64,000 nt of DNA from an uncultured Bacilli bacterium (GTDB lineage: Bacteria > Bacillota_I > Bacilli_A > RF39 > UBA660), in contig CAXHRJ010000002.1 of the NCBI GenBank assembly GCA_964018915.1, positions 274,155-338,154 on the forward strand. Direction: 5' to 3'. The notes beneath the pieces are model-generated. The model was given only the letters and a program-made list of their open reading frames with translations. It was not told where the DNA came from and searched no databases. Below, in pieces: positions 6,599 to 40,006 of the stretch. Made by a program: the position numbers and the translations under genes. The stretch's first letter is position 1; each line of letters opens with the position of its first letter.

Positions 6599-8272
6599 AT
6601 GAAAAGGGTAAGAAATTTACAAATTTATTTAACGGCAATGAGTTTATTGTTAAGTGGATGTAGCTTAGATTTAAAAAGTGCTAATCTAGACAGCGAGGAT
6701 TCTACTTGTAAACAGGAAGAAACTAATTCTTTTGGCTTTAATAATTCTTCTAATAGTGTATATTTTAATCGTACTTATAATTCTTCAGCTGATTATGATG
6801 ACATGATTTTAACATTAGAAGAAAAAGGAGTAAGAGATTTATCAGATGAAGCAAAGAGCGCTGTGCAAAATGTATCGCTCTACAATGCCATTCCTTACGA
6901 TTTTTCATGGGTAGAATATTTTCGCATTGATGATTATTATCAATCAGCCTATACCCATCCTAATATTACTAGTCGTATAAGAAATCATCATAATACAGAA
7001 CTTTATAATAGAATTAGCAATTCTATTTATTGGGAGAAATTAGCAGATTATATTATTAATAATACAGAGGCTAGAATTCAAAAAGATGATACAAATGAAT
7101 TAGTGGCACTTAGTACCTCTGATGTAAAAACGATTGTTAAACAATTATCGGAGTTCGTAAATGATGTAAAAAGGGATTATCCTGATTATGATATGGAACA
7201 TTTGGCATGTCAGTTACAATTATTATCTCTTGCTTATAGAGTTGATGATAATGATTCACGTACTTTGGCAAGCACTTCTTATGCTAGTATTGAATGGTAT
7301 TTAAATGATGATGGAAAGTATCCGATTTTAAAAACTTCTCTCATGTTAAATAATCATGAATTTAAACATTTTTTATGCAGTTATTGTAGGGATGAAATTA
7401 CTACAGGTGAAAATGTTTATGTAACACCTTCTGGGCTTATATATGGTGCTAATACTGCTTTAAATTTCTCTTTTATAGAGGAAGCTACTGCTGAGGAGTA
7501 TTCTGCTAATAGAAACGGTCAAGAGGAAGTTACTTATTATGAAAAGATTGCTGCTTTGGATACCATAAGATTTGTTTTAAGTATGCAAGATGATTATGAA
7601 GATGATGCCTTTTTAAAGTATAGCTTTCTTCAAAATCCATTGGCAACTGTTCAGCAATTTCCAGTATTAAATAGTCAGACTTATTATTTTAAAAACAATT
7701 TGAAGATGTTAGCTGCGTATAATGCGTGTCTATCTTCTTTACCATATGTATTTGTTAGTTCAGTAGAGTCTGTTCCTGGCTATCAAGGATTCTATGAAAA
7801 TTTAGAACAAAGAAAAGAAGTGTTATCTTCTTTAGGGACTTATGCTAGTGTAGAATTATCTCGTTTATTTATGACAAATTTAGTAGTAATGAATGATACA
7901 AAAGATAGTATGACATTGGGGTATAACTTCTATTTAATACGTTTATTTGAGAAAAGAATGGATATTATGTTTTCTGCTATATCTGATTTTCAAAAGTTTA
8001 ATATGAGTTCAGCAAATTACAAACAAATTTACCAAGAGAGATTAGGTGCTTTGTTTCAGTATTTAGGCGCTAAATATAAAATAGATTTAGGAGCTATAAG
8101 GGAACTTTATGAGGAGTATTATTTAAATCAAGAGACTAGTTATCCAGCGTTTGTTGATGAAAGTAGGAAAGCTTTTTATCAAGAATTAGAGAAAACAGAA
8201 TATAACGGACAACAATTAAAAGAAGACTCTGAAACTCATATGCAGTATTATGTTCAATATTCTGGAAGATAA
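6599..8272 (+). CDS. Hypothetical lipoprotein
   Basis: Signal peptide with lipobox LLSGC (MKRVRNLQIYLTAMSLLLSGCS). The rest has no recognised domain. The start could lie upstream (track 6569). Confidence 0.55.
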   Translation: MKRVRNLQIYLTAMSLLLSGCSLDLKSANLDSEDSTCKQEETNSFGFNNSSNSVYFNRTYNSSADYDDMILTLEEKGVRDLSDEAKSAVQNVSLYNAIPYDFSWVEYFRIDDYYQSAYTHPNITSRIRNHHNTELYNRISNSIYWEKLADYIINNTEARIQKDDTNELVALSTSDVKTIVKQLSEFVNDVKRDYPDYDMEHLACQLQLLSLAYRVDDNDSRTLASTSYASIEWYLNDDGKYPILKTSLMLNNHEFKHFLCSYCRDEITTGENVYVTPSGLIYGANTALNFSFIEEATAEEYSANRNGQEEVTYYEKIAALDTIRFVLSMQDDYEDDAFLKYSFLQNPLATVQQFPVLNSQTYYFKNNLKMLAAYNACLSSLPYVFVSSVESVPGYQGFYENLEQRKEVLSSLGTYASVELSRLFMTNLVVMNDTKDSMTLGYNFYLIRLFEKRMDIMFSAISDFQKFNMSSANYKQIYQERLGALFQYLGAKYKIDLGAIRELYEEYYLNQETSYPAFVDESRKAFYQELEKTEYNGQQLKEDSETHMQYYVQYSGR

Positions 8273-8329
8273 AAACATTTCTTGATTTTTAAAAATGATT
8301 ATAGTACACTTGATATTAGAGGTGATAAA

Positions 8330-9430
8330 ATGAGTTTAACAGCAGGTATAGTGGGATTACCTAATGTTGGTAAATCTACTTTATTTAATGCAATTACAAA
8401 GAAAAATATATTAGCAGCTAACTACCCATTTGCGACAATTGATCCAAATGTTGGTGTGGTAGTTGTTCCAGATAGAAGATTAGAATTTTTAGAAAATTTA
8501 TATCATCCTGCTAGTTTAGTTCCAACAACTTTTGAATTTACAGATATAGCAGGATTAGTAAAAGGGGCATCTAATGGAGAAGGACTTGGAAATAAATTTC
8601 TTTCTCATATTAGAGAAGTAGATGCCATTGTAGAAGTAGTTAGATGCTTTGATGATAAAAATATCATTCATGTGGAGAATACTGTAGATCCTATTCGTGA
8701 TATTGAAATTATTGAACTAGAGCTTATTTTGGCAGATTTAGAGATTATTGAAAATAGAATTAATAAAATAGGAAAAAAAGCTGCTTTGTCAAAAGATAAA
8801 GAAGTAAAAAAAGAAGCAGAATTACTAACAAAATTAAAAGAAGCTTTAGAAACAAATAAATCTATTCGTAGTTTGGAATTAGATGAAGAAGAGTTAAAGA
8901 CAATTAAAGCGTTTAATTTATTAACTGCTAAACCAATTATTTATATGGCAAATGTGTCAGAGGATGACTTATTAGCAGGCACTAATGAATATGTAGAAAC
9001 AGTAAAAAAATATGCTGCAGATAATGCTTCAGAAGTGATTGTTGTATGCGCTAAAATAGAGTCTGATTTAAGTGAACTAGATAGTGAAGAAAAACAAACC
9101 TTCTTAGAAGAATTGGGAGTAAAAGAAAGTGGTTTAGATCAACTTATTAAAGCTACCTATTCTTTACTTGGACTAGAAACTTTCTTTACGTCTGGAACAG
9201 ACGAAGTGCGCGCTTGGACATTTAAAAAAGGAATGAAAGCTCCACAATGTGCAGGAATTATTCATACAGATTTTGAAAGAGGCTTTATTAAGGCTGAAGT
9301 TATGAGCTATGAAGACTTAGAGTCATGTGGTAATGAAAAAAGCGTAAAAGAAGCAGGAAAGATGCGTCTTGAAGGAAAAGATTATCTAATGCAAGATGGG
9401 GATATCTGTTATTTTAGATTTAATGTATAA
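8330..9430 (+). CDS. ychF: Ribosome-binding ATPase YchF (Obg family)
   Basis: G1 motif GIVGLPNVGKSTLFN, C-terminal TGS domain, and the position before rpsF as in Bacillus (yyaF). RBS AGAGGTGA precedes ATG 8330. Confidence 0.9.
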   Translation: MSLTAGIVGLPNVGKSTLFNAITKKNILAANYPFATIDPNVGVVVVPDRRLEFLENLYHPASLVPTTFEFTDIAGLVKGASNGEGLGNKFLSHIREVDAIVEVVRCFDDKNIIHVENTVDPIRDIEIIELELILADLEIIENRINKIGKKAALSKDKEVKKEAELLTKLKEALETNKSIRSLELDEEELKTIKAFNLLTAKPIIYMANVSEDDLLAGTNEYVETVKKYAADNASEVIVVCAKIESDLSELDSEEKQTFLEELGVKESGLDQLIKATYSLLGLETFFTSGTDEVRAWTFKKGMKAPQCAGIIHTDFERGFIKAEVMSYEDLESCGNEKSVKEAGKMRLEGKDYLMQDGDICYFRFNV

Positions 9431-13226: not shown

Positions 13227-13250
13227 GCAATTATTCGCTCATTTTTTTAT
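13221..13250. terminator. Bidirectional terminator between convergent genes
   Basis: AATGAGC-(aattattc)-GCTCATT hairpin flanked by an A-run and a T-run. Confidence 0.5.
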
Positions 13251-13847
13251 AACACAAAATTCCCATAATACTTTAGGTACATCATATTTTCCAACGTTTT
13301 TTTCTTCCATATGATAAAACTCAAATTTATGAAAGAATGATTTTATAGATTCTTCATTGAAGAATCTTTTATAAACGTTACCATTATAAAAGAAATTCTC
13401 TTCTATTTCTTCTGTGTTTGGTAAATAAAAGGTATCGTTAGTAGAATTCACTCTAGCAAGAAATATACCATTTCTTTTTAATACTCTATATATTTCATCA
13501 GTAAGAAATTTTGTAGTAGAAGAATCAAAATAATGGATACTTAAATCTGCTATTAAAATATTGATAGAATTATCTTTAAATGGCAGACCATCTTTCATAT
13601 CAAATTGTAGAGTTTTTAAATTGGGAACTTCTTTGTGGATAATACTTAGAACTTCTTTAGAAAAGTCACAAACGGTAATGTTTTTAAATCCTAATTCTAA
13701 TAAATATCTACTATCATAGGCTCTGCCACAACCTAGCTCTACAATGACGTCTTTTTTATGAAATAAATTTAGATAATCATTTAACCAACCATCATAAGAG
13801 GAGTTATATTTTAAATGGACTTCATCCCAATATTTATCTAAATTCAT
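13239..13847 (-). CDS. Class I SAM-dependent methyltransferase
   Basis: Motif I VELGCGRAYDS. Start MNLDKYW at 13847 has an AGGTGA RBS; the ORF extends to 13880 if an upstream ATG is used. Confidence 0.6.
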   Translation of the reverse strand: MNLDKYWDEVHLKYNSSYDGWLNDYLNLFHKKDVIVELGCGRAYDSRYLLELGFKNITVCDFSKEVLSIIHKEVPNLKTLQFDMKDGLPFKDNSINILIADLSIHYFDSSTTKFLTDEIYRVLKRNGIFLARVNSTNDTFYLPNTEEIEENFFYNGNVYKRFFNEESIKSFFHKFEFYHMEEKNVGKYDVPKVLWEFCVIKK

Positions 13848-13897
13848 AGTATCACCTATTTCAATCATATCATAAACCATATAAAAAGACTAGTTAT

Positions 13898-14872
13898 CTA
13901 GCCTTTTTCAATTAGGAAAGTAAGTAAATCCGATGGTTTTTTATCATGATAAATAATATCATAAATAAGATTTATAATTGGCATGTTTACCTTTTTATTT
14001 TCTAATAATTGATAAATGGATTTTAAAGTATATAATCCTTCAATAGTAGTAGTTTCTATATATCTATCAACTTCTTCTTTAGAAGCCCCTTTTCCAAGCA
14101 ACCTCCCAAAAGAGAAGTTTCTACTTTTGGTACTTGTGCAGGTTAGGAGTAAATCTCCAAATCCAGCAAAAGATAAAATAGTATTTTTATCTCCACCTAA
14201 AGCATCTATTAATTCTTTGATATCATTTAAAGATTCAGTAATCATCATAGCCTGCGTAGAAATCGGTAAATCCATGCCATCTAACATTCCGTTTGCAATA
14301 GCTATTACATTTTTGATAGAACCACAGATCTCAATGCCTAAAATATCACTTGTTTCTCTTAATTTAACATGACTATTTTGCAATGCTTTTTTTATAATAG
14401 AGATTGTTTCTTGGTTAGTGCTTGCAAGAGATAATCCTACTGGAACTTTATTAGCGACATCAATGGCAAATGTTGGACCAGAAATAACTCCTACTTTATC
14501 AGTATCAATATATTTTTTAAATACATCATAAACGAATAGGCAAGAATCGTTTTCAATTCCTTTAGAAGCAATACATACATGTTGATCTTTCTTTATGTAT
14601 TTATTTAATTCTTGTGATACATCATCTACAAATGCAGCAGGAATAGCTATTAATATTAAGTCAGCCTCTACTACTGTTTTTTCGAAATCTGTAGATATTT
14701 TAATATTTTCATCAATGATAATATTTTTTAGATTAGGACTTCGTCTTTGCTGATCTAGAAAATTTGCTTCTTCTTCAAACTTTGTCCACATAGAAACATC
14801 GTTTCCATTTTCATTTAGAATAAGAGCTAGGGAAACTCCGAATGCTCCTGTACCTAATACACCTATTTTCAT
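13898..14872 (-). CDS. gpsA: NAD(P)H-dependent glycerol-3-phosphate dehydrogenase
   Basis: MKIGVLGTGAFG Rossmann N-terminus with GpsA-like length and motifs. AGGTGA RBS before ATG at 14872. Confidence 0.85.
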   Translation of the reverse strand: MKIGVLGTGAFGVSLALILNENGNDVSMWTKFEEEANFLDQQRRSPNLKNIIIDENIKISTDFEKTVVEADLILIAIPAAFVDDVSQELNKYIKKDQHVCIASKGIENDSCLFVYDVFKKYIDTDKVGVISGPTFAIDVANKVPVGLSLASTNQETISIIKKALQNSHVKLRETSDILGIEICGSIKNVIAIANGMLDGMDLPISTQAMMITESLNDIKELIDALGGDKNTILSFAGFGDLLLTCTSTKSRNFSFGRLLGKGASKEEVDRYIETTTIEGLYTLKSIYQLLENKKVNMPIINLIYDIIYHDKKPSDLLTFLIEKG

Positions 14873-15014
14873 TTTATCACCTACTTTATTATAGCACATT
14901 TTATGAATTAAAATTATTAAGAATGATTAAATTCTTGATTTCTAAAATGGGATGTACTATAATGATTTTAGGAATAGAATAAGTAATATGAATGCTATAG
15001 AAAGGAAGCAAATT

Positions 15015-30242: not shown

Positions 30243-31193
30243 ATGTTAAATTTTGAGAAACCAACATATAAAATTACTGAGTATGTTGAAAACAAAAATT
30301 ATGGTAAATTTGAATTAGAACCTTTAGAGAGAGGTTTTGGAACAACTTTAGGTAATGCTCTTAGAAGAATTATGCTATCTAGCATGCCTGGAAGTGCTAT
30401 TGTAGCTGTTAAAATTGATGGCGTAATGCATGAGTTCCAAACAATAGATGGAATCGTAGAAGATGTTACTACAATTATTTTAAATTTAAAAAATGTTGTT
30501 GTAAAAAATAATTCATCAGAAGTACAAATCATTAAATTATTCTCAGATAAAGAGGGTACAGTAACTGCTGCTGATATTGAAACAAATAGTGATGTAGAAG
30601 TTATTTCTAAAGATCAAGAAATTGCAACTATTGCAAAAGGTGGTAAACTTGATATGGAATTAATGATTGCTAATGGAAGAGGATATGTTCCATCAACTGA
30701 TAACAAATCATTTGTTGATAATGAGAAAAAAGGTTTTATTCCAATTGATGCGCTTTACTCACCTATTGAAAGAGTTAGTTATGAAACAGAGAGTGCTCGT
30801 GTAGGACAAGATGCTAACTATGATAAATTAATCATGGAAGTATTTACAAATGGTTCTATTCGTCCTGAAGAGGCAATGGCACTTGCTGCTAAAATCATGA
30901 TTGAACATTTAAACATCGTCACTAATTTAAGTGAAATTGCAGATATTACAGGAATCATGAATGCTAAACAAGAAGATAGCAAATTAAAGAAATTAGAAAC
31001 ATCAATCGATGATTTAGATTTCTCTGTAAGAGCTTACAATTGCTTAAAAAGAGCTGGAGTTAATACATTAGGAGATTTAACTTCTAAATCAGAATTAGAA
31101 ATGATGAAAATTCGTAATCTAGGTAAAAAGTCTTTAAAAGAAGTAATCGATAAGATTAAAGAAATGGGACTTAAATTCCGTGAAGACGATTAG
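30243..31193 (+). CDS. rpoA: DNA-directed RNA polymerase subunit alpha
   Basis: MLNFEKPTYKI... NTD, and CTD (LDFSVRAYNCLKRAG). ATG 30243 follows an AAAGGAGTGGGG RBS; the track's upstream extension is unlikely. Confidence 0.95.
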   Translation: MLNFEKPTYKITEYVENKNYGKFELEPLERGFGTTLGNALRRIMLSSMPGSAIVAVKIDGVMHEFQTIDGIVEDVTTIILNLKNVVVKNNSSEVQIIKLFSDKEGTVTAADIETNSDVEVISKDQEIATIAKGGKLDMELMIANGRGYVPSTDNKSFVDNEKKGFIPIDALYSPIERVSYETESARVGQDANYDKLIMEVFTNGSIRPEEAMALAAKIMIEHLNIVTNLSEIADITGIMNAKQEDSKLKKLETSIDDLDFSVRAYNCLKRAGVNTLGDLTSKSELEMMKIRNLGKKSLKEVIDKIKEMGLKFREDD

Positions 31194-31209
31194 TAGTTAG
31201 GAGGATATT

Positions 31210-31566
31210 ATGGCTTATAGAAAATTAGGACGTACAAATAAACACAGAAGAAGTATGCTTGCTAACCTAACTAGAGACGTTATCATGAAAGAAAGAATCG
31301 AGACAACAGAAACAAGAGCTAAAGAAGTTCGTAAGTTTGTTGATAAGATGATTACTTATGGTAAAGATGGTTCTTTAGTAGCAAGAAGAAAAGCATTAGC
31401 TTTCTTACATAATGATACAGAGGCTGTTAAGAAAGTATTTGATGATTTAGCACCACGTTTTGCAAAACGTAATGGTGGATATACAAGAATTTTAAAATTA
31501 ACTGAACGTCGCGGAGATGACGCTTTAGAGGTTATTTTAGAGTTAGTAGAAGGAGATGCTGCATAA
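31210..31566 (+). CDS. rplQ: 50S ribosomal protein L17
   Basis: [14 protein letters not shown]... Confidence 0.95.
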
Positions 31567-31636
31567 GCGTCTTTTTTTGTATTTATTTTTGATAATATAT
31601 GATATAATTGGAATATGAAAATATGGGGAGGTATTT

Positions 31637-32230
31637 ATGAGTATGTTAATGGATCCAAAAACAACCTATATCGATGATACAGTTATATTGGGTGAAAACT
31701 GTACTATATATCCTAATGTTATGATTAAAGGAAATAGTGTTATTGGAAAAAATACTGTCATCTATATGGGTTCTTATATTGAAGACTCTATAATTGGAGA
31801 AAATAACATTATTTATACATCTTATATTATGAATAGTGCAATAGGCGATGATAATGTGATTGGGCCTTATGCACATATTCGTGCAGGGAATCATATTGCT
31901 AATAAAAATAAAATAGGTTCTTTTGTGGAACTTAAAAACAGTGACATAAAAAACAATGTTAAAATACCTCATTTAAGCTATGTTGGTGATACTTCTGTTG
32001 GTAATCATGTAAATATAGGCGCTGGTGTAAAAGTTGCAAATTATGACGGAAAAGAGAAGTATAGGACGGTTATTCATGATAAAGTTTTTGTGGGGTGTAA
32101 TTCGGTACTCGTTGCTCCAGTAACTTTGTCAAAGGAAAGTTATATAGCAGCTGGATCCATTATAACAGAAAATGTTCCTGAACATTCATTAGCAATCGCA
32201 AGAGAGAGGCAAATTAATAAGAACTTATAA
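31637..32230 (+). CDS. Hexapeptide-repeat (LbH) acetyltransferase homologous to the C-terminal GlcN-1-P acetyltransferase domain of GlmU; stand-alone, no uridylyltransferase domain
   Basis: Left-handed beta-helix repeats ending in a GlmU-like tail (NYDGKEKYRTVIHDKVFVGCNSVLVAPVTL...IAAGSIITENVPEHSLAIAR.RQ). No pyrophosphorylase domain upstream. Confidence 0.6.
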   Translation: MSMLMDPKTTYIDDTVILGENCTIYPNVMIKGNSVIGKNTVIYMGSYIEDSIIGENNIIYTSYIMNSAIGDDNVIGPYAHIRAGNHIANKNKIGSFVELKNSDIKNNVKIPHLSYVGDTSVGNHVNIGAGVKVANYDGKEKYRTVIHDKVFVGCNSVLVAPVTLSKESYIAAGSIITENVPEHSLAIARERQINKNL

Positions 32231-32262
32231 TTTGTCTTTTTGTTTGAGTAAGGAGGATAAGT

Positions 32263-32964
32263 GTGATAGAAACAATAATTTGTGATGATGACAAAAGTTG
32301 TAGAAATGCAGTAGCTAGTGTAGTAAAAGAATTTTTTAATGAAAAGAAAATATCTCATAAAATAGTGAAGTATGCAGATTATAATGAAAAGTTTATTCAA
32401 GATATTACACCAGGTGGTAAAAAGATTTATATCTTAGATATCGAAACTCCTAGTCGTTCAGGAATAGATATTGCTAGAATTATTAGAAAAAGAGATGTAG
32501 AAAGTATTATTATCTTTGTAACTGGTTATGAAGAATTTAGTAAATTAGTTTTAAAGAAAAATATTATGTGTTTATCATTTATTAATAAATTCGATCACTT
32601 AAATGAAAATTTAAAAGAATCATTGGAAGAATCTCTTCATTTCTTTGAAACTAATAAAGTGTTGAGAATTACAGACAATGGAATAACTTATAATATTCGT
32701 TTAAATACAATTCTATATTTTACCAGAGATAGTCTAGATAGAAGAACAATAATCAAATGTGATAAAACAGAATATAAATTAAAAATGACTTTGGCTGAAG
32801 TAAAAGAAATATTCGGAGATAAGTTTATTCAAACACATAGAAGTTGTTTTGTAAATGAACAAAGAATAGATACAATAGACCATAAGAATAAAATTATTAC
32901 ATTTGACAATGGTGTAACTATTGATTTATTATCTGATACTTATAGAAAGGAGTTGATGAGATGA
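32263..32964 (+). CDS. agrA: LytTR-family response regulator (AgrA-like)
   Basis: N-terminal receiver (acidic pocket CDDD; LDIETP Asp) plus a C-terminal LytTR domain (FIQTHRSCFVN). GTG start with an AGGAGG RBS. Overlaps the downstream kinase (ATGA). Confidence 0.8.
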   Translation: MIETIICDDDKSCRNAVASVVKEFFNEKKISHKIVKYADYNEKFIQDITPGGKKIYILDIETPSRSGIDIARIIRKRDVESIIIFVTGYEEFSKLVLKKNIMCLSFINKFDHLNENLKESLEESLHFFETNKVLRITDNGITYNIRLNTILYFTRDSLDRRTIIKCDKTEYKLKMTLAEVKEIFGDKFIQTHRSCFVNEQRIDTIDHKNKIITFDNGVTIDLLSDTYRKELMR

Positions 32965-34256
32965 AGTATGCTGTATCGTTTTTAATCATTCATTTGTGTT
33001 TTACTATTTCAATGGGATTATTAGCAAACGAAAAGATTAATCTAAAAAATAAACGGTTTTTACTGTCCTTTTTTGTCACATGGATTTTATTAGTTCTAAA
33101 CTTTGAATATTCTATATCTTCTATAAGAGTAATCCTTAATATAGGTATTTATATGTTATTGGCAAAATTATTATTTGACAAGAATTTTAAAGAGTCAATA
33201 ATATTGGGGATGTTAGTAACAATATTGGGAATATGTGCAGAGTTTGCATATGTTATAATAACATATCCAATTTTTCATTATAATTCAGTTTTAGAAGAAA
33301 AAATAAATATGGTGTTTGTTAATAATTTGGGAACAGGTATATTGATGATTCTTTTCTGTGTTTTAAAAAAAATTAGGAATCTATATGATATGGTTCTTTC
33401 ATCAACAAACAAAATTAGTGAAAAACACATAGCGCTTTTTTCTTTATTTATTGTTGCGATATTTAATTTTGTTAGCTTGATTTCATATTATATATCTAAA
33501 GATTTAATAGACAAGTTTTATTTTACTTTGATAGGGTCATTTTTATATGTTTTTAGTGCTATTCTAATTTTTCTCTATTTTAAGACACAAAGTAAATATT
33601 TAACTTTTTATGAGAAATATAATGTATCATTAGAAAGTATTAGAGAATTTGAAATGACGATAGAAAGATATAGGATCAATACTCATGAGAATAAAAATCA
33701 ATTTCGCACTATTAGAAATATGAGTAAGAATAAAAAGATTGTATCTTATATTGATGCACTGTTAACAGATAATATTAGTGATGATGAGAAGTTACTAATA
33801 GAAACTCAACGAATCCCAGCTGGTGGCTTAAGAGGAATAATTTATTCCAAGTTGTTATTGATGCAACAGGAAAATATTCCATTTGAATTGGTTATAGATA
33901 AAAAAATTACTATAGAAAAAACTAATAAAATAGATGATTATACTTTAACATCTGTTTGTAGAATTTTAGGAGTATTATTAGATAATGCTATTGAAGAGGT
34001 CAAAAAGTTGGATAATAAATATATAATGGTTGAATTATATGAAGAAGATAAAGATATAGTAATTTCTATTACAAATAATTATGAAGGGTATGTAGATATT
34101 GAAGCTATCAATAATCCTGGTATATCATCAAAAGGTAAGAATCATGGATATGGTCTATCTTTAGTTCAAAAATTAGTCAGAAAAAATAAAAAAATCCAAC
34201 AGAGTAGTGAATTTTTTGAGGATAATTTTATGCAAAAGTTAATAATAAAAGTGTAG
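32961..34256 (+). CDS. agrC: AgrC-like (HPK10 family) sensor histidine kinase
   Basis: Six or seven N-terminal TM helices. C-terminal GHKL ATPase region (LLDNAIEE N-box; GYGLSLV G-box). Confidence 0.8.
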   Translation: MKYAVSFLIIHLCFTISMGLLANEKINLKNKRFLLSFFVTWILLVLNFEYSISSIRVILNIGIYMLLAKLLFDKNFKESIILGMLVTILGICAEFAYVIITYPIFHYNSVLEEKINMVFVNNLGTGILMILFCVLKKIRNLYDMVLSSTNKISEKHIALFSLFIVAIFNFVSLISYYISKDLIDKFYFTLIGSFLYVFSAILIFLYFKTQSKYLTFYEKYNVSLESIREFEMTIERYRINTHENKNQFRTIRNMSKNKKIVSYIDALLTDNISDDEKLLIETQRIPAGGLRGIIYSKLLLMQQENIPFELVIDKKITIEKTNKIDDYTLTSVCRILGVLLDNAIEEVKKLDNKYIMVELYEEDKDIVISITNNYEGYVDIEAINNPGISSKGKNHGYGLSLVQKLVRKNKKIQQSSEFFEDNFMQKLIIKV

Positions 34257-34278
34257 AATTTCTACACTTTTTATTTGA
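34248..34278. terminator. Bidirectional terminator shared by convergent agrC and agrD
   Basis: GTGTAGA-att-TCTACAC hairpin with an A-run before and a T-run after. Confidence 0.5.
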
Positions 34279-34396
34279 TTAATGATTTAGGGCATTCTGG
34301 TTCGTCAACTGTAAAGAAAATTAAACAACCTACTTCACATGTACTTGCTACAAAAGCCCCAATGTGTGAAAGTATCCCAGCTAAAAATCCTAACAT
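34271..34396 (-). CDS. agrD: AgrD-like autoinducing-peptide precursor (41 aa; absent from the ORF track)
   Basis: MLGFLAGILSHIGAFVASTCEVGCLIFFTVDEPECPKSLIK. Amphipathic leader, Cys-containing core (CLIFF) and conserved C-terminal recognition motif (DEPECPKSL; compare C. perfringens ...CLWFTHQPEEPKSL). AGGAG RBS 7 nt before the ATG. Start overlaps the agrB stop. Confidence 0.8.
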   Translation of the reverse strand: MLGFLAGILSHIGAFVASTCEVGCLIFFTVDEPECPKSLIK

Positions 34397-35013
34397 ACTG
34401 CAACTCCTTCCTCTTTTTTGAGATAGTTCAAATAATTGTTATAAGGGAGTTTGAATATGCGATATGTTATAGGGGAAATCATGATATCTATTAATAGCAT
34501 GCTCATAAAAAAGCAATTTGATAAAAAGTTATTTGTTATAGAAATAGAGATGATTACGTATATGATTGCTGTCAGTGTTGCTAGTAATTTATGACGTAAT
34601 CTTTTTTGCTTATCTATAATTGGCCTTTTCTTCGTATCTGCAGGGCTGTTCTTGAAGATGAGAATGCTTGCTACTATTCCCAGTACATATTTTATCAGAA
34701 ATGGAACTCTCAAGTTCATTGCAACAAGTGGTATTCCCAGAAAAGCTACAGAAGATGTGATTAGACACACCCAGCTCTTCGTTGCATGTATACCATACGC
34801 ATTGTTTCTCAGAATTGCAAATATTATTAGGAAACACGCACATTCTCTTTGAATTTCTAGCAAATACGCTATTATTATGATAATAATTAGTTTTGTTATT
34901 GATAAATATACACCTGCTAATCCATATTCAATTTGTTCTAATTCCACATTTGTTAAATGTGGTTTTTCTTTTTTTATAAGTTTCATACAATTTCCTACAA
35001 AAACATTTCTCAT
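34390..35013 (-). CDS. agrB: AgrB-like membrane peptidase (AIP processing and export)
   Basis: Polytopic membrane protein of AgrB size with a basic cytoplasmic loop. Start MRNVF at 35013 has an AAAGGAG RBS. Directly upstream of agrD. Confidence 0.75.
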   Translation of the reverse strand: MRNVFVGNCMKLIKKEKPHLTNVELEQIEYGLAGVYLSITKLIIIIIIAYLLEIQRECACFLIIFAILRNNAYGIHATKSWVCLITSSVAFLGIPLVAMNLRVPFLIKYVLGIVASILIFKNSPADTKKRPIIDKQKRLRHKLLATLTAIIYVIISISITNNFLSNCFFMSMLLIDIMISPITYRIFKLPYNNYLNYLKKEEGVAVC

Positions 35014-35059
35014 ACTGCCTACTCCTTTATACGATTGAAATTGTAACATGAATGAATTT

Positions 35060-35150
35060 GTTTTAAAATAGAAAATGTTCCAAATACCTAAAATCGTGTT
35101 CGAAATGGTAGAAAGAGGATTTCAGACACGATTTTTTCCATTTCGAGCAC
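35060..35150. promoter_or_regulatory. agrBD promoter region with repeated AACA(CG)TTTT-type motifs and two crossing inverted repeats (candidate LytTR binding sites)
   Basis: A TACAAT -10 (minus strand, about 35040-35045) lacks a good -35. Upstream lie motifs AAAATGTTCC (35072-81) and AAAATCGTGTTCG (35090-102). The inverted repeats are AAAATCGTGT/ACACGATTTT and TCGAAATGG/CCATTTCGA. Confidence 0.35.
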
Positions 35151-35293
35151 AAAGTATTCCCATGGAGTTTAATTTATGATACGATGGTTGTGTTCTGCTA
35201 AAAATGTTGAAATTTGTAGTTTAGATTTTATGTTTTGAGCAGAAGATGTATGCTATAATTTATTTGTATTCAAAAAAGAAGGGAGATGTTAGT

Positions 35294-35509
35294 GTGATAA
35301 CAGGTAAGGTAAAATGGTTCAATAACGAAAAAGGTTATGGATTTATTGAGTACAAAGACATGGAAGATATTTTTGTACATTATTCAGCAATTTTATCAGA
35401 AGGATATAAAACATTAGTTGAAGGTCAATATGTCACTTTTGAATTAGTTAGAACTGATAAAGGTTTACAAGCTAAGAATGTAGTAGAAAATAAAACTGCG
35501 GTAGTTTAG
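35294..35509 (+). CDS. csp: Cold-shock protein (CspA family)
   Basis: [17 protein letters not shown] motifs. GTG start 35294 with an AGAAGGGAG RBS; the track's upstream extension is unlikely. Confidence 0.85.
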
Positions 35510-35568
35510 TAGTTTTTTTTTATTATCTAAATTGGAAAAGATGATATAATTAGAAATGAGGTGTTCCT

Positions 35569-36804
35569 ATGAAGAAAAAAGCTATAATTACAATGCTTAT
35601 CATTCCTGTTTTCGTAATAGTAATTTTTTTAGGAATTCATATTAAGAAAAAGATGGATATAAAAAGGGAAGAGGAGCGTATTAAGAACGCTAGAGTAGAG
35701 GTAACTCTTACTGAAGAATTGATAATTCCGTTTTTAGAGAAAAAGAAAGTATCTGATTTTATTATTAGTATTAATGGGGACATCATAGAAGATTATGAAA
35801 TAGATACTACTTCTTTAGGGAAGAAATCTATTTCGTTTGAATTTATTAATGATGAAGGAATAAAGATTCCTTATAACTTTGAAATAGAAGTTAAGGACGT
35901 AACTCCTCCTACTGTTTTATTAGGCGGTTCTTATAGGGTGAAAAAGGGCTCTACTTCCAAGTTTATGAATAATATTTTGTGTGGAGATGATTATGATAGT
36001 GATCCAAAATGTGAGGTAGTTGGAGATTATGATTTAAATAAAGAGGGAACTTATCCAGTTACTTTTAAAGCAACAGATAAAAGTGGGAATGTAACCGAAA
36101 AAAAATTTAATTTAATCGTTTATGTTCCAAAAAATGGTGGTGGAACTAGTACTACCAAACCTAAGAGAACAAATTTTTCAGATGTTGTAAAAGTGCATAA
36201 AAATGAGAATACTCGTATTGGAATAGATGTTTCTAAATGGCAAGGAGATATTGATTTTGATAAATTAAAGGATGCAGGAGTTGAGTTTGTTATCATTCGT
36301 ATAGGGACAACAGCTGGTATGGATGGAGAATATGTGATAGATCCTAAGTTCATTCAAAATATGGAAGGTGCTACTCGTGTAGGCATGGATGTAGGTCTTT
36401 ATTTTTATTCTTATGCTTATTCTAAAGAAAGTGCTTTAAAAGATGCGGAATGGGTAATAGAGCAGATAAAAGATTATGATATTTCATTACCAATTGCTTT
36501 TGATTGGGAAGAGTGGAATGATTTTAATAGTTTTCATATTAGCTTTTTTGAGCTTACAAATGCAGCTGATACCTTTTTAACTCGTTTAGAAGAAGAGGGG
36601 TATAAAGGTTATGTGTATAGTAGTAAATACTATTTAGAGAATGTTTGGTTAGAACATCGGCATGATATTTGGTTAGCCCATTATACAACAAATACAAATT
36701 ATAAAGGAAAGTATAGTATGTGGCAGCTTTGTAGCAATGGAAAAGTAGACGGTATTAAAGGCAATGTTGATATAGATGTATTATATTTAAATCAAAATAA
36801 TTAA
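35569..36804 (+). CDS. Membrane-anchored GH25 muramidase (lysozyme) with an Ig-like (DUF5011-type) domain
   Basis: N-terminal TM helix, an Ig-like segment (TPPTVLLGG...SGNVTEKKFNLIVY), then a GH25 signature (GIDVSKWQGDIDF, GLYFYSYA). Confidence 0.7.
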   Translation: MKKKAIITMLIIPVFVIVIFLGIHIKKKMDIKREEERIKNARVEVTLTEELIIPFLEKKKVSDFIISINGDIIEDYEIDTTSLGKKSISFEFINDEGIKIPYNFEIEVKDVTPPTVLLGGSYRVKKGSTSKFMNNILCGDDYDSDPKCEVVGDYDLNKEGTYPVTFKATDKSGNVTEKKFNLIVYVPKNGGGTSTTKPKRTNFSDVVKVHKNENTRIGIDVSKWQGDIDFDKLKDAGVEFVIIRIGTTAGMDGEYVIDPKFIQNMEGATRVGMDVGLYFYSYAYSKESALKDAEWVIEQIKDYDISLPIAFDWEEWNDFNSFHISFFELTNAADTFLTRLEEEGYKGYVYSSKYYLENVWLEHRHDIWLAHYTTNTNYKGKYSMWQLCSNGKVDGIKGNVDIDVLYLNQNN

Positions 36805-36830
36805 GAAGATTTCTTAATTATTTTTAATTT
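36800..36830 (+). terminator. Rho-independent terminator
   Basis: TTAAGAA-gat-TTCTTAA followed by a T-rich run. Confidence 0.5.
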
Positions 36831-36877
36831 GTAAATGCCAAGTTTTATGATATAATGGAGTTAGAAAGGATGATATT

Positions 36878-37408
36878 ATGAAATTTAATATTCATGGAAA
36901 GAAAGTTGAGGTTACAGAGCCAATCAAAAAATATATTGAGGAAAAGATTGGTAGACTAGACAAGTATTTCGAAAATCCAAGTGACGTTACAGCTACTGTG
37001 GTGGTAAGAATAAGGGGTATAGAACAAATTGTAGAGGTTACAATTCCTATCCAAAAAATGATATTGCGTGCGGAAGAAAGCCATAGTGATTTATATGCAG
37101 CGATTGATATTGTTTCTGATAAAGTGGAAAGACAAATCAGAAAGAATAAAACTCGTATGAATAAGAGAACTTCAAAAGGGGAAGAGTTAGGTTTTAACTT
37201 ATCTTTTGAAGATGTAAAAGATAATGAAGAATCTAGTGTTGTAAAGAGAAAAGAGATTGAGATGAAACCTATGAGTGAAGAAGAAGCGATTCTTCAAATG
37301 GAACTTTTAGGACATGAATTCTTTGTATTTAGAAATGTAGAATCTGGTGAAATTGACATTCTTTATATGAGAAAAGATGGCAATTACGGAATTATTGAAA
37401 CAAAATAG
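36878..37408 (+). CDS. hpf: Ribosome hibernation-promoting factor (long HPF)
   Basis: MKFNIHGKKVEVTEPIKKYIEEKIGRLDKYF... plus the C-terminal dimerisation domain. Confidence 0.85.
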   Translation: MKFNIHGKKVEVTEPIKKYIEEKIGRLDKYFENPSDVTATVVVRIRGIEQIVEVTIPIQKMILRAEESHSDLYAAIDIVSDKVERQIRKNKTRMNKRTSKGEELGFNLSFEDVKDNEESSVVKRKEIEMKPMSEEEAILQMELLGHEFFVFRNVESGEIDILYMRKDGNYGIIETK

Positions 37409-37432
37409 GCTTAAATGCCTATTTTTAATTGT
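37409..37432 (+). terminator. Rho-independent terminator (weak)
   Basis: TAGGC-ttaaa-GCCTA followed by TTTTTAA. Confidence 0.35.
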
Positions 37433-37519
37433 GAAAAATTCTTAAAAGTTAGGGGATATGCTATGATTTCTAAAGAATATTTGATAAAATAGATATGGAT
37501 ACAAAAAGGAGAATGGGAC

Positions 37520-40006
37520 ATGAAGTTTTTAAAGAAAATATTTGATCATGAATATAAACAATTAGAGAGATTTCGCAAGATTGCTGACCAAGTAATAGCA
37601 CTTGAAGATGAATATGCGAAATTATCTGATAAAAAATTAAAAGCAAAGACAGAGGAATTCAAAAAACGTTTAGAAGACGGAGAAACATTAGAAGATATTA
37701 AGGTAGAAGCATTTGCAACTGCAAGAGAGGCTGCTTTCCGTGTTATTGGAGAAAGAGCTTACTACGTTCAGATTTTAGGTGGTCTTGCTATTCACTATGG
37801 TAATATTGCAGAAATGAAGACTGGTGAAGGTAAAACTTTAACAGCTACTATGCCAGCCTATTTAAATGCGTTAACTGGTGAAGGTGTTCATATTATTACA
37901 GTTAATGAATATCTTGCTGGACGTGATGCAGAATGGATGGGGGAAGTATATCGCTTTTTAGGACTTACAGTAGGCGTTAACTATAGGGAATTAACTCCTA
38001 GTGAAAAGAAAGAGGCTTACAATTGCGATATTCTTTATTCAACAAATAATGAAATTGGATTTGATTATTTAAGGGATAATATGGTTATTAAAGCTTCTGA
38101 TAGAGTTGCTAGGCCATTTAATTTTGTTATTATTGATGAGGTTGACTCTGTATTAATTGATGAGGCAAGAACTCCACTTATTATTTCTGGTGGACATATG
38201 CAGTCTGCTAATTTATATATCCAAACAGATAAGTTTGTAAAAGGATTAAAAGAAAATGAGGGGTATATCTATGATGAGCAAACAAAGGCTACTATTTTAG
38301 ATCAAACTGGTATTGAAAAAGCAGAAAAAGCATTTAAGGTTAATAACTTATATGATATTGAAAATACTAATTTAGTTCATTTTATTAATCAAGCATTAAA
38401 AGCTAATTTTTCAATGAAGAAAGATTTTGATTATGTAGTGGAAGATGACAAAGTAATTATTGTAGATCCTTTTACTGGTCGTTTAATGCAAGGAAGATCT
38501 TATTCTGATGGTTTACATCAAGCAATTGAAGCTAAAGAGGGAGTTACTATTAATGAAGAAACTAAGACTTTAGCAACTATTACGTTCCAAAATTTATTCC
38601 GCATGTATAAAAAACTTGCTGGTATGACAGGTACTGCTAAAACAGAAGAAGAAGAGTTTAGAGATATTTATAATATGTATGTTATCTGTATTCCAACAAA
38701 TAAGCCAGTTTCTCGTAAAGATTATGGAGATTTGCTATTTGCAACACAAGAGGGAAAATTTAATGCGATTGTAAAAGAGATTAAAGAACGTCATGCAGCA
38801 GGACAACCAGTATTAGTTGGTACTGTTGCTGTAGAAACGAGTGAGCTTATTAGTGAAAAGTTAAAAAAGGCAAAAGTTCCTCATGAAGTATTAAATGCTA
38901 AAAATAATGCTCGTGAAGCTGAAATTATTGCTAAAGCTGGTGAAAAAGGCGCTGTAACAATAGCTACTAATATGGCAGGACGTGGAACAGATATTAAGAT
39001 TAATGATGAAGTTAAAGAATTAGGTGGTCTTTGCGTTATTGGTACAGAACGCCATGAATCACGCCGTATCGATAATCAGTTGCGTGGACGTTCTGGTCGT
39101 CAAGGAGATCCAGGATTCTCTCAATTCTGTGTATCTTTTGAAGATGATTTAATGGTTCGATTTGGTACTGATAAAGCAAAAGGATTACTTGCTAGAATGG
39201 GATTTGATGGGGAAGCTGCTATTCGTAATAAAATGCTTTCTAATTCTATTGAAGCAGCACAGAAACGTGTAGAAGGTAATAACTTTGATGTTCGTAAAAC
39301 ATTGCTAGAATATGATAATGTTATTAATGAACAAAGAGAAGTTATTTATGAAAAAAGAAATGAAATATTGGATTCTGAGTCTATTCATGAAACGATATTA
39401 GATAGTTTCCATAACTTTGTTGAAGATGTGTTCTATGAACATATGGAAGATGGAGATTTAAGTCAAGAAGATAGAGAAGAAATGGCTACTTATTTTACAG
39501 AAATGTTAGGAACAGAAATTTCAGCTGCTGAATATGAAGAAAAAGATTTAGATGCTGAAATTGAATATATTTATGGAAGATTAGTAGAAAACTATGAAAA
39601 TAAAATTGAAGAGGTTCCAACTGAAATAGTTAATGAGTTTGAGAAAGCTATTACGCTAAGGGTAATTGATACTTATTGGATGGAACATATCAATACAATG
39701 GCTCATTTAAGAGAAGGTATTTATTTACGTGGATATGCGCAAGAAAATCCATTACGTGCTTATAAGAGTGAAGGATATGAATTGTTTGATAATTTATTAG
39801 CACGTATTGACAGACAAGCTTCCATTTATTTATTAAAGGCTGAAGTAAGACAAAACGTAGAACGTAAGAAAGTAGCAGAAGGTGTTGCTAATAACGATTC
39901 CAATAAAGTAAAAAAGCAATCTCCAAAAAGAGTTGCGAAAGTAGGAAGAAATGACAAATGCCCTTGTGGCTCAGGTAAGAAATATAAGCAATGTTGTGGA
40001 AAATAA
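37520..40006 (+). CDS. secA: Preprotein translocase ATPase SecA
   Basis: DEAD-like motor motifs (MKTGEGKT; DEVDSVLIDEARTPLIIS) and a C-terminal zinc-binding tail (KCPCGSGKKYKQCCG). Confidence 0.95.
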   Translation: MKFLKKIFDHEYKQLERFRKIADQVIALEDEYAKLSDKKLKAKTEEFKKRLEDGETLEDIKVEAFATAREAAFRVIGERAYYVQILGGLAIHYGNIAEMKTGEGKTLTATMPAYLNALTGEGVHIITVNEYLAGRDAEWMGEVYRFLGLTVGVNYRELTPSEKKEAYNCDILYSTNNEIGFDYLRDNMVIKASDRVARPFNFVIIDEVDSVLIDEARTPLIISGGHMQSANLYIQTDKFVKGLKENEGYIYDEQTKATILDQTGIEKAEKAFKVNNLYDIENTNLVHFINQALKANFSMKKDFDYVVEDDKVIIVDPFTGRLMQGRSYSDGLHQAIEAKEGVTINEETKTLATITFQNLFRMYKKLAGMTGTAKTEEEEFRDIYNMYVICIPTNKPVSRKDYGDLLFATQEGKFNAIVKEIKERHAAGQPVLVGTVAVETSELISEKLKKAKVPHEVLNAKNNAREAEIIAKAGEKGAVTIATNMAGRGTDIKINDEVKELGGLCVIGTERHESRRIDNQLRGRSGRQGDPGFSQFCVSFEDDLMVRFGTDKAKGLLARMGFDGEAAIRNKMLSNSIEAAQKRVEGNNFDVRKTLLEYDNVINEQREVIYEKRNEILDSESIHETILDSFHNFVEDVFYEHMEDGDLSQEDREEMATYFTEMLGTEISAAEYEEKDLDAEIEYIYGRLVENYENKIEEVPTEIVNEFEKAITLRVIDTYWMEHINTMAHLREGIYLRGYAQENPLRAYKSEGYELFDNLLARIDRQASIYLLKAEVRQNVERKKVAEGVANNDSNKVKKQSPKRVAKVGRNDKCPCGSGKKYKQCCGK

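Follow-up and report, generated by a model that had tools for sequence, protein, structure and literature searches.

What does an agr-type quorum-sensing system control when the gene divergent from its signal genes encodes a cold-shock protein? The question is raised by a 64-kb stretch of DNA (the whole of which is called the window below) from an uncultured low-GC gut member of the Bacilli. In this stretch the regulator and kinase genes agrA and agrC lie on the plus strand and converge on agrB and agrD, which lie on the minus strand, and agrB is separated by a 280-bp spacer from a divergent csp gene. The system occupies about 3.3 kb plus the 280-bp control region, and the guanine plus cytosine (G+C) content of the agr region is 26%, as against 30% for the window. 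An earlier sequence-only reading described a complete agr-type system, and this description stands: all four families were recovered by profile search, and the catalytic residues are intact. The same reading held that the regulon is not obvious from context, a view that is revised here. The csp gene is a conserved neighbour, and the LytTR-type direct-repeat promoter in front of it is conserved too and mirrors that facing agrBD; csp is therefore the first candidate target. With moderate confidence, and from sequence comparison, the locus is read as a working agr-type cyclic-peptide system that would auto-induce only agrBD and also drive csp from a P3-like promoter.

Predicted AgrA promoters between agrB and csp

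The genes and control elements on which the argument turns are as follows (coordinates are those of the window).

32263..32964, plus strand: agrA, response regulator with receiver and LytTR domains, 233 aa; GTG start 5 nt after AAGGAGG
32961..34256, plus strand: agrC, HPK10-type sensor kinase, 431 aa; starts at the ATG of ATGA
34271..34396, minus strand: agrD, 41-aa precursor, MLGFLAGILSHIGAFVAST-C20-EVG-C24-LIFFTV-DEPECPKSLIK
34390..35013, minus strand: agrB, membrane peptidase/cyclase, 207 aa; PF04647 at 9.4e-32, multiple hydrophobic segments
35040..35048, minus strand: extended -10 element of the agrBD promoter, TGtTACAAT (TTTAAA-16-TACAAT with TG)
35076..35106, minus strand: agrB-facing direct-repeat pair, ATTTCGAACA, 11 nt, ATTTGGAACA; 21-bp period, predicted AgrA auto-induction site
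35119..35149, plus strand: csp-facing direct-repeat pair, ATTTCAGACA, 11 nt, ATTTCGAGCA; 21-bp period, predicted AgrA site of the P3-like promoter
35177..35185, plus strand: extended -10 element of the distal, box-dependent csp promoter, TGaTACGAT, 30 nt after the box pair; read from the sequence
35251..35259, plus strand: extended -10 element of the proximal csp promoter, TGcTATAAT; apparently constitutive
35294..35509, plus strand: csp, CspA-family cold-shock-domain (CSD) protein, 71 aa; PF00313 at 3.8e-26, RNP1 KGYGFI, RNP2 IFVHY

The spacer carries four 10-bp boxes of the form ATTT[CG][GA][AG][AG]CA. Two of these, at 35106-35097 and 35085-35076 on the minus strand, face agrB, and the pair ends 30 nt upstream of the agrBD -10 element; the other two, at 35119-35128 and 35140-35149 on the plus strand, face csp. 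LytTR regulators (AgrA, ComE, PlnC) use direct repeats of 9-10 bp with a spacer of 12-13 bp, about 21 bp apart and located at roughly -70 to -40, next to a weak -35 region. Both pairs in the window have the corresponding 21-bp period, and each ends 30 nt before an extended -10 element. They are the sole matches to the box-pair pattern in the 64 kb when two mismatches are allowed, about 0.09 being expected by chance. As the pattern came from the window sites themselves, it was tested on other species.

Relatives were collected by scanning one genome per species with an AgrC alignment, which gave 80 loci (best match 41% identical), nearly all from metagenome-assembled genomes of uncultured gut 'Bacilli' or 'Tenericutes', plus a few Clostridia. 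The order agrA, agrC and then agrB on the opposite strand is present in about 70 of the 80, from different species, and the convergent layout is therefore the norm in this lineage and not the peculiarity for which it had been taken. It also occurs in 24 loci of an independent sample, consisting of 80 metagenome loci anchored on Hpf, for which counts come from those with at least 3 kb of upstream sequence. Among the AgrC-anchored loci, 53 of 69 have a csp homologue as the divergent neighbour of agrB; hpf comes after csp in 46 and secA in 38, and the agrA side varies. In the Hpf-anchored sample csp and agr occur together in 24 loci, neither is present in 17, csp alone is found in 2 and agr alone in none (Fisher 4e-10); this co-occurrence is given little weight, because a rough Hpf tree accounts for the counts with about 3-5 events.

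A strict regular expression for the boxes matched 5 of the 69 loci and was replaced by an iterative position-weight model of 31 nt, with which comparable pairs were found upstream of agrB in about 42 of the 69. Circularity was controlled by leave-one-out scoring that excluded similar sites and by a model trained without the window. Over 764 kb of loci, matches of at least 14 bits are confined almost entirely to the agrB-csp spacer and to the strand that points away from agrB. In 33 of 36 leave-one-out trials no other 31-mer of the entire locus outscores the held-out csp-facing site, and a -10-like hexamer begins 29 or 30 nt past this pair in 31 of 36 loci. In the window the csp-facing pair scores 23.0 bits and ranks first of 32,000 positions in a 16-kb stretch (leave-one-out); under the model trained without the window it is the best match of the entire 64 kb, and the agrB-facing pair, with 15.8 bits, ranks second. 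The agrB-facing pair is weaker in other species, where it is nevertheless enriched over controls (p = 2.5e-8) and exceeds the control 99th percentile in 11 of 36 loci; its distance to the csp-facing pair is fixed at 33-35 nt in most loci, as against 12 nt in the window. Presence of the pair goes largely with agr (18 of 28 loci with agrB, 2 of 8 without), and both exceptions look truncated or degenerate.

Closer to the window, footprinting across L083-L087 shows that the four boxes and both -10 elements are retained and that the intervening sequence drifts. The agrBD -10 element is kept there as TGcTACAAT or TGcTAAAAT, and the distal csp -10 element as TGnTA(C/T)GAT despite the drift of the sequence between; the agrB-facing pair is conserved in L085-L087.

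Three further observations concern the boxes. The third-best match in the window (37290-37320, minus strand, 11.5 bits) lies inside hpf, and L087 (11.3 bits) and L003 (8.8 bits) have a match at the corresponding position; coding constraint, and not a role as a binding site, is the probable reason for its retention. In L027 (about 8120-8500) and L107 a second csp copy lies downstream of the first with its own box pair (20 and 25 bits), so that the box pair plus csp seems to duplicate as a block. Lastly, six loci with agr and no adjoining csp (L046, L058, L059, L061, L062, L065) have a 104-aa open reading frame (ORF) divergent from agrB and, after it, the gene of a second GHKL kinase with a distant likeness to AgrC (60-140 bits). 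The model from csp-type loci detected no box pair in these six, and they appear to have a different output wiring.

The agr genes and their predicted signal

The four agr ORFs stand at the coordinates first proposed for them, and the profile hidden Markov model searches to which the sequence-only reading had pointed recovered Response_reg, LytTR, HATPase_c_5 and AgrB, with AgrD below the Pfam cut-off and above that of TIGR04223. The ATGA at 32961-32964, where the agrA stop overlaps the agrC start, confirms the coupling of this pair; with agrAC on the plus strand and agrBD converging on it from the minus strand, the agrBD transcript must be separate, as had been said. The features that complete the operon and its boundaries are given here.

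31546-31580: rplQ terminator, from the terminator listing; precedes the -10 element at 31600
31600..31608, plus strand: extended -10 element, TGaTATAAT, read from the sequence; putative and likely constitutive promoter of a glmU-C-like/agrA/agrC operon
31637..32230, plus strand: stand-alone GlmU C-terminal (left-handed beta-helix acetyltransferase) ORF, 197 aa, 32 bp 5' of agrA
34247..34271, both strands: two-way hairpin terminator shared by agrC and agrD, 11-bp stem and 3-nt loop

AgrA matches LytTR at 2.2e-14 and Response_reg at 1.8e-7. It aligns over its full length to the ComE structure 4cbv (1.1e-8) and through its LytTR domain to the AgrA structure 3bs1 (7e-5), and its residues D9, D59, T87 and K109 are conserved across 65 homologues. 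AgrC matches HATPase_c_5 at 3.2e-15, and its catalytic core aligns to the S. aureus AgrC structures 4bxi (5.1e-9) and 6e52 (1.8e-8). In an alignment of 20 homologues, with identity down to 33%, the H-box H242, N342 and G396-Y-G-L are invariant; the HATPase match and the intact N and G boxes indicate a probably functional HATPase domain, the lack of which had been named beforehand as a ground for abandoning the assignment. Residues 1-205 form about 7 transmembrane segments according to the hydropathy profile. Some relatives have two agrC genes in tandem (L010 5953-8643, L019 5986-8635, L037 5929-9801, L137). In L037 there are also two agrD genes, whose cores differ (C-VIIFL and C-WIWYM), and a fragment of agrB, which suggests duplication and divergence of signal-receptor pairs.

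In AgrB, H76 and C83 are 100% conserved in 64 homologues, at a 7-residue spacing that we take to be that of the catalytic His77/Cys84 of S. aureus AgrB. No solved structural relative of AgrB was found by sequence. The longest ORF would begin at 35049; the ATG at 35013 is preferred because it has an AAGGAG ribosome-binding site and lies downstream of the predicted -10 element.

The agrD start codon overlaps the agrB stop by 7 nt. The product scores 6.9e-4 and 20.0 bits against the Pfam model, just below the gathering cut-off of 22.7, and 19.5 bits against TIGR04223, which passes the cut-off of 19. It has the make-up of an AgrD, being a small precursor encoded beside agrB with a leader, a hydrophobic core with Cys or Ser, and an acidic follower that contains Pro. 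In more than 55 relative loci agrB is followed by a small ORF of the same design, in which a leader precedes an invariant Cys, a core that is hydrophobic and hypervariable, and the nearly invariant follower DEP[EK][CM]PKSLIK. Five residues separate the Cys from the follower in most of them, and six do so in the window and its clade (L003, L083-L087), where the core is C-LIFFTV in the window and L087, and C-AIFVIL, C-MLLFVV, C-VYFFLV or C-VILFFV in the other four clade loci. C24 is taken as the ring residue because C20 is replaced by Ser in two relatives (L086 and L087), C24 being invariant.

The point of cleavage is suggested by better-known peptides. Rc-AIP1 of Ruminiclostridium cellulolyticum is CWFWSY, six residues without an N-terminal tail (PMC8251862), the characterised ring of C. 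acetobutylicum, [CVLVTL], is cut directly before the follower (PMC12312760), and related precursors in the current collection read ACWFSSF and then YQQECPKSLLK (L079), or ACWFFTY and then YQRECPKSLLK (L074). Cleavage is for these reasons placed immediately before the follower, so that 6-residue rings would be the usual product in the family and the window may encode a 7-residue ring, [CLIFFTV]. The predicted [M+H]+ is 824.4375 for [CLIFFTV], as against 725.3691 for [CLIFFT] and 624.3214 for [CLIFF], and an acetylated form would be heavier by 42.011. The ring sizes listed for characterised agr-type peptides are 5, 6 and 9 residues, and 7 is absent from that list.

The bidirectional terminator that had been proposed between the two units is real as a hairpin, and its span is corrected from 34248-34278 to 34247-34271. 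It folds at -14.0 kcal/mol on the plus and -11.7 on the minus strand (z = -4.0 and -4.4), none of 200 shuffles folded as well, and a U-run follows it on both strands. The agrC stop codon sits within the stem. A structured agrC-agrD spacer is common among relatives (z < -2 in 48 of 59 loci).

The agrA-agrC unit holds as a coupled pair and is incomplete as first described, since a third gene appears to share its promoter. The 197-aa ORF matches the NCBIfam GlmU models at profile positions 251-443 only (5.5e-75) and is 40% identical to residues 253-446 of E. coli GlmU; no GlmU N-terminal domain was found in the 64-kb window, and the ORF is thus not a bifunctional GlmU, in which the uridyltransferase is fused to the acetyltransferase. 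It adjoins agrA only in the window's own clade (L003, L083-L086) and is probably the first gene of the agrAC transcript; it could represent one half of a housekeeping glmU that has been split, or else an enzyme that modifies the peptide. No box pair was found upstream of agrA in any locus scanned, and we therefore infer that agrAC is constitutive. With the GlmU-C-like gene, agrA and agrC in one constitutive operon, only signal production would be under feedback.

How fast these proteins diverge was measured in four close relatives that have the whole neighbourhood in common with the window. Amino acid identities to the window are as follows.

RpoA: 98%
RplQ: 97-98%
Csp: 99-100%
Hpf: 90-95%
AgrC sensor: 45-69%
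AgrC kinase half: 64-80%
AgrD: 71-90%
AgrB: 78-84%
AgrA: 79-88%

Near-identical housekeeping flanks around a divergent AgrC sensor and AgrD core point to agr specificity groups like those of staphylococci.

The proposed circuit and its rivals

The circuit favoured here would operate as follows. AgrA and AgrC would be made constitutively. AgrB, through His76 and Cys83, would cut the DEPECPKSLIK follower off AgrD and close a thioester ring on Cys24, and the exported peptide would be sensed by the sensor of AgrC with its approximately seven helices. AgrC would then phosphorylate AgrA on Asp59 from His242, and phosphorylated AgrA would bind both 10-bp direct-repeat pairs in the agrB-csp spacer. 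The agrB-facing promoter would fire toward agrBD, a positive feedback on signal production only, and the csp-facing distal promoter would fire toward csp, stacked on the constitutive promoter of that gene, so that the Csp RNA chaperone would occupy the position held by RNAIII in staphylococci. On this model, density-dependent transcripts would begin near 35033 on the minus and near 35192 on the plus strand, with a constitutive csp start near 35266. Binding by AgrA, activity of the promoters and structure of the peptide are predictions throughout.

The csp gene itself most likely starts at the GTG at 35294, its identity as the divergent neighbour is secured by the CSD match, and no other csp gene was found within the window. 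Its proximal promoter appears in the alignment of csp leaders as a conserved TTGAAA-17-TATA(A/T)T block, and the box-dependent promoter is for that reason the second, distal one. About 25 nt upstream of the proximal -35 element lies a further conserved leader or operator motif.

35205..35219, plus strand: conserved motif, in the window TGTTGAAATTTGTAG (TGTTGAAATTTG); family consensus TTTTGTCGAAATTTTG (TTTTGTCGAAATTT)
35495..35521, plus strand: weak intrinsic terminator after csp, ACTGC...GTAGT stem and a run of 8 T; -8.2 kcal/mol, z = -3.1

This motif lies at -97 to -89 from the start of the csp ORF in 30 of 52 loci (csp leaders L004-L072), an 11-fold enrichment, and is tandem in some (L006, L036); it loosely resembles a CodY box. 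In the window, a hairpin at 35190-35247 (-18.3 kcal/mol, z = -5.3) covers both the motif and the proximal -35 region. No consensus RNA structure was found in 24 csp leaders with RNAalifold, nor any Rfam match in 31000-37600 at E <= 1. An RNA element in the csp leader is therefore not proposed, the hairpin being clade-specific or incidental. The divergent unit is a csp mRNA and not a regulatory RNA of the RNAIII kind.

Several points weigh against control of csp by AgrA. Expression of csp does not need the distal promoter, as the gene has a conserved proximal promoter of its own. The csp-hpf-secA side is syntenic, and since the co-occurrence of csp and agr amounts to about 3-5 events, their linkage could be historical. 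The box sequence, ATTTCAnnCA, has no obvious match to the S. aureus AgrA consensus ACAGTTAAG, and we infer the link between AgrA and these boxes from sequence. About two thirds of the other species have an agrB-facing pair that is weak or cannot be detected, and in about 10 of 28 metagenome loci with agrB no csp-facing pair reaches 12 bits. Because the window supplied the first seed of the position-weight model, there was a risk of circularity, which the leave-one-out and window-free models address.

Much of this is also what would be expected if agr were real and auto-induced agrBD, and the csp-facing repeats and distal promoter belonged to the regulation of csp itself, by another factor or a stress promoter, with the adjacency of csp inherited as part of the hpf-secA synteny (46 and 38 loci). 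The independent proximal promoter, the separate conserved motif TTTTGTCGAAATTT, which could bind another factor, the few tree events and the 10 of 28 loci with agrB and no detectable pair all fit such a history. It is nonetheless considered rather unlikely: the repeat type, the 21-bp period and the 30-nt distance to an extended -10 element are mirrored toward agrBD in the window clade, and elsewhere an agrB-facing pair is enriched at a fixed offset. Four csp loci that clearly lack agr (L100, L120, L147, L157) have no pair, and the geometry is of the LytTR type, AgrA being the sole such protein encoded nearby.

A different arrangement would have both pairs as AgrA sites forming one upstream activating region for agrBD, with csp outside quorum control and its distal -10 element incidental. 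The csp-facing pair is indeed the stronger and better conserved and could be the real agrBD operator acting from about -100, and the two pairs are a fixed 33-35 nt apart in most loci. This seems improbable given that 31 of 36 loci have a -10-like hexamer, kept in close relatives, 29-30 nt past the csp-facing pair, and given the duplicated csp of L027, which has its own pair without a second agrB. That the locus is a decaying or orphan remnant with no remaining signalling is most improbable of all. The AgrD score under the Pfam cut-off and the evolution of the agr genes, far faster than that of their flanks, could be taken in this sense; against it, every ORF is intact and the catalytic residues are all conserved, and the exact AgrC (100% identical, full length) occurs on 5 contigs in total, from NCBI and from several independent Logan assemblies that share the gene order of the window. 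The nearly invariant AgrD follower beside a core that alone varies is likewise a pattern of diversifying specificity and not of decay.

The reading preferred here, a working agr system with csp under a P3-like promoter, can be extended to the lineage, tentatively and as something possible rather than probable. Across a large lineage of uncultured gut Bacilli with reduced genomes, the RNAIII-equivalent direct output of agr would be the Csp RNA chaperone, expressed from a P3-like AgrA promoter, and the signal of the window clade would be the 7-residue ring [CLIFFTV], perhaps modified by the co-transcribed acetyltransferase-fold protein.

The surroundings of csp merit a brief description. A post-csp hairpin and T-run equivalent to that of the window is found in 35 of 40 loci, and because of this weak, conserved terminator csp is probably its own transcription unit; a quorum-driven transcript running obligatorily on into GH25, hpf and secA was dropped from consideration for the same reason. 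The GH25 lysozyme-like protein, with an Ig-like domain (35569-36804), lies between csp and hpf only in the window's clade and is fast-evolving (64-76% identity, vs 98% for RpoA). Over positions 1-64000 the window has a very strong strand bias: of 71 ORFs of at least 110 aa, nearly all real-looking genes are on the plus strand, and the only clear minus-strand units are agrB-agrD and a pair at 13239-14899.

Comparison with known agr systems

Direct agr targets outside staphylococci are largely unknown, and according to a primer published in 2025, clostridia and Listeria have no known counterpart of RNAIII (PMC12312760). From comparative genomics alone, a specific and conserved candidate emerges in dozens of uncultured gut species: a further promoter of the AgrA type, directed at the gene of a Csp RNA chaperone. 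If this is true, cell density would act on mRNA folding and translation through Csp and not through a regulatory RNA. The polymorphism of signal and receptor, together with a possibly unusual ring size, bears on density sensing and competition among small-genome uncultured gut bacteria, and the locus is compact enough that it could be rebuilt in Bacillus subtilis, making the signalling testable without culturing the host.

No published agr system in RF39-like lineages and no agr-csp module was found in the open-access literature; AgrB and AgrD genes of gut genomes have already been catalogued by large surveys (PMC11953309, PMC12180512). The new elements are a mirrored LytTR-type promoter, conserved and directed at csp, a ring that may have 7 residues, and strain-level polymorphism in an uncultured gut lineage. 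The convergent architecture is ordinary for the lineage and partly known already, separate agrBD and agrCA operons having been described in clostridia (PMC12312760).

Clostridium acetobutylicum shares with the window the separate signal and sensor units, the lack of a known RNAIII equivalent, a follower of the (Y/D)EPxxP type and a ring of more than 5 residues. Its operons are described only as separate, with orientation unstated, whereas those of the window converge, and no csp partner is described (PMC12312760). The agr2 locus of Clostridioides difficile 027, 'agrACDB', has the same order of agrA, agrC, agrD and agrB and no divergent RNAIII was found there; compared by description only, it differs in that a single transcript is suggested, strand orientation is unstated, and neither a csp neighbour nor AgrA boxes are described (PMC3754575). 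The Rc-AIP1 system of R. cellulolyticum has the ...ECPKSLLK type of AgrD follower that is also seen in L079 and L074; it controls sporulation, and the core of the window clade is one residue longer (PMC8251862). L079 itself, from R. cellobioparum, has agrC and then a reversed agrB, the same convergence as in the window, and no csp. Paenibacillus polymyxa offers a parallel for the ORF upstream of agrA, which has an acetyltransferase fold and lies 32 bp from that gene, in agrE, an extra gene beside agr whose acetyltransferase product modifies the signal peptide (PMC12180512). To which protein family AgrE belongs is unstated there, whereas the ORF in the window is 40% identical to the GlmU acetyltransferase domain.

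The fullest comparison is with S. aureus agrBDCA. The four protein families are the same, including an AgrB with His and Cys 7 apart, an HPK10-type AgrC and a LytTR AgrA. Like the P2/P3 region, the spacer of the window has two direct-repeat pairs of 21-bp period in a divergent promoter region, one of them facing the signal genes, and in both systems the AgrD core and the AgrC sensor are hypervariable at strain level. The window differs in having two converging units, agrAC on the plus and agrBD on the minus strand, in place of the single co-linear agrBDCA operon (RNAII) of the staphylococcal type, and only agrBD, not agrCA, lies behind boxes. Its AgrD core is longer, with Cys+6 before the follower as against Cys+4. 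The box sequence also differs, and where S. aureus has RNAIII, the divergent transcript of the window encodes the Csp protein.

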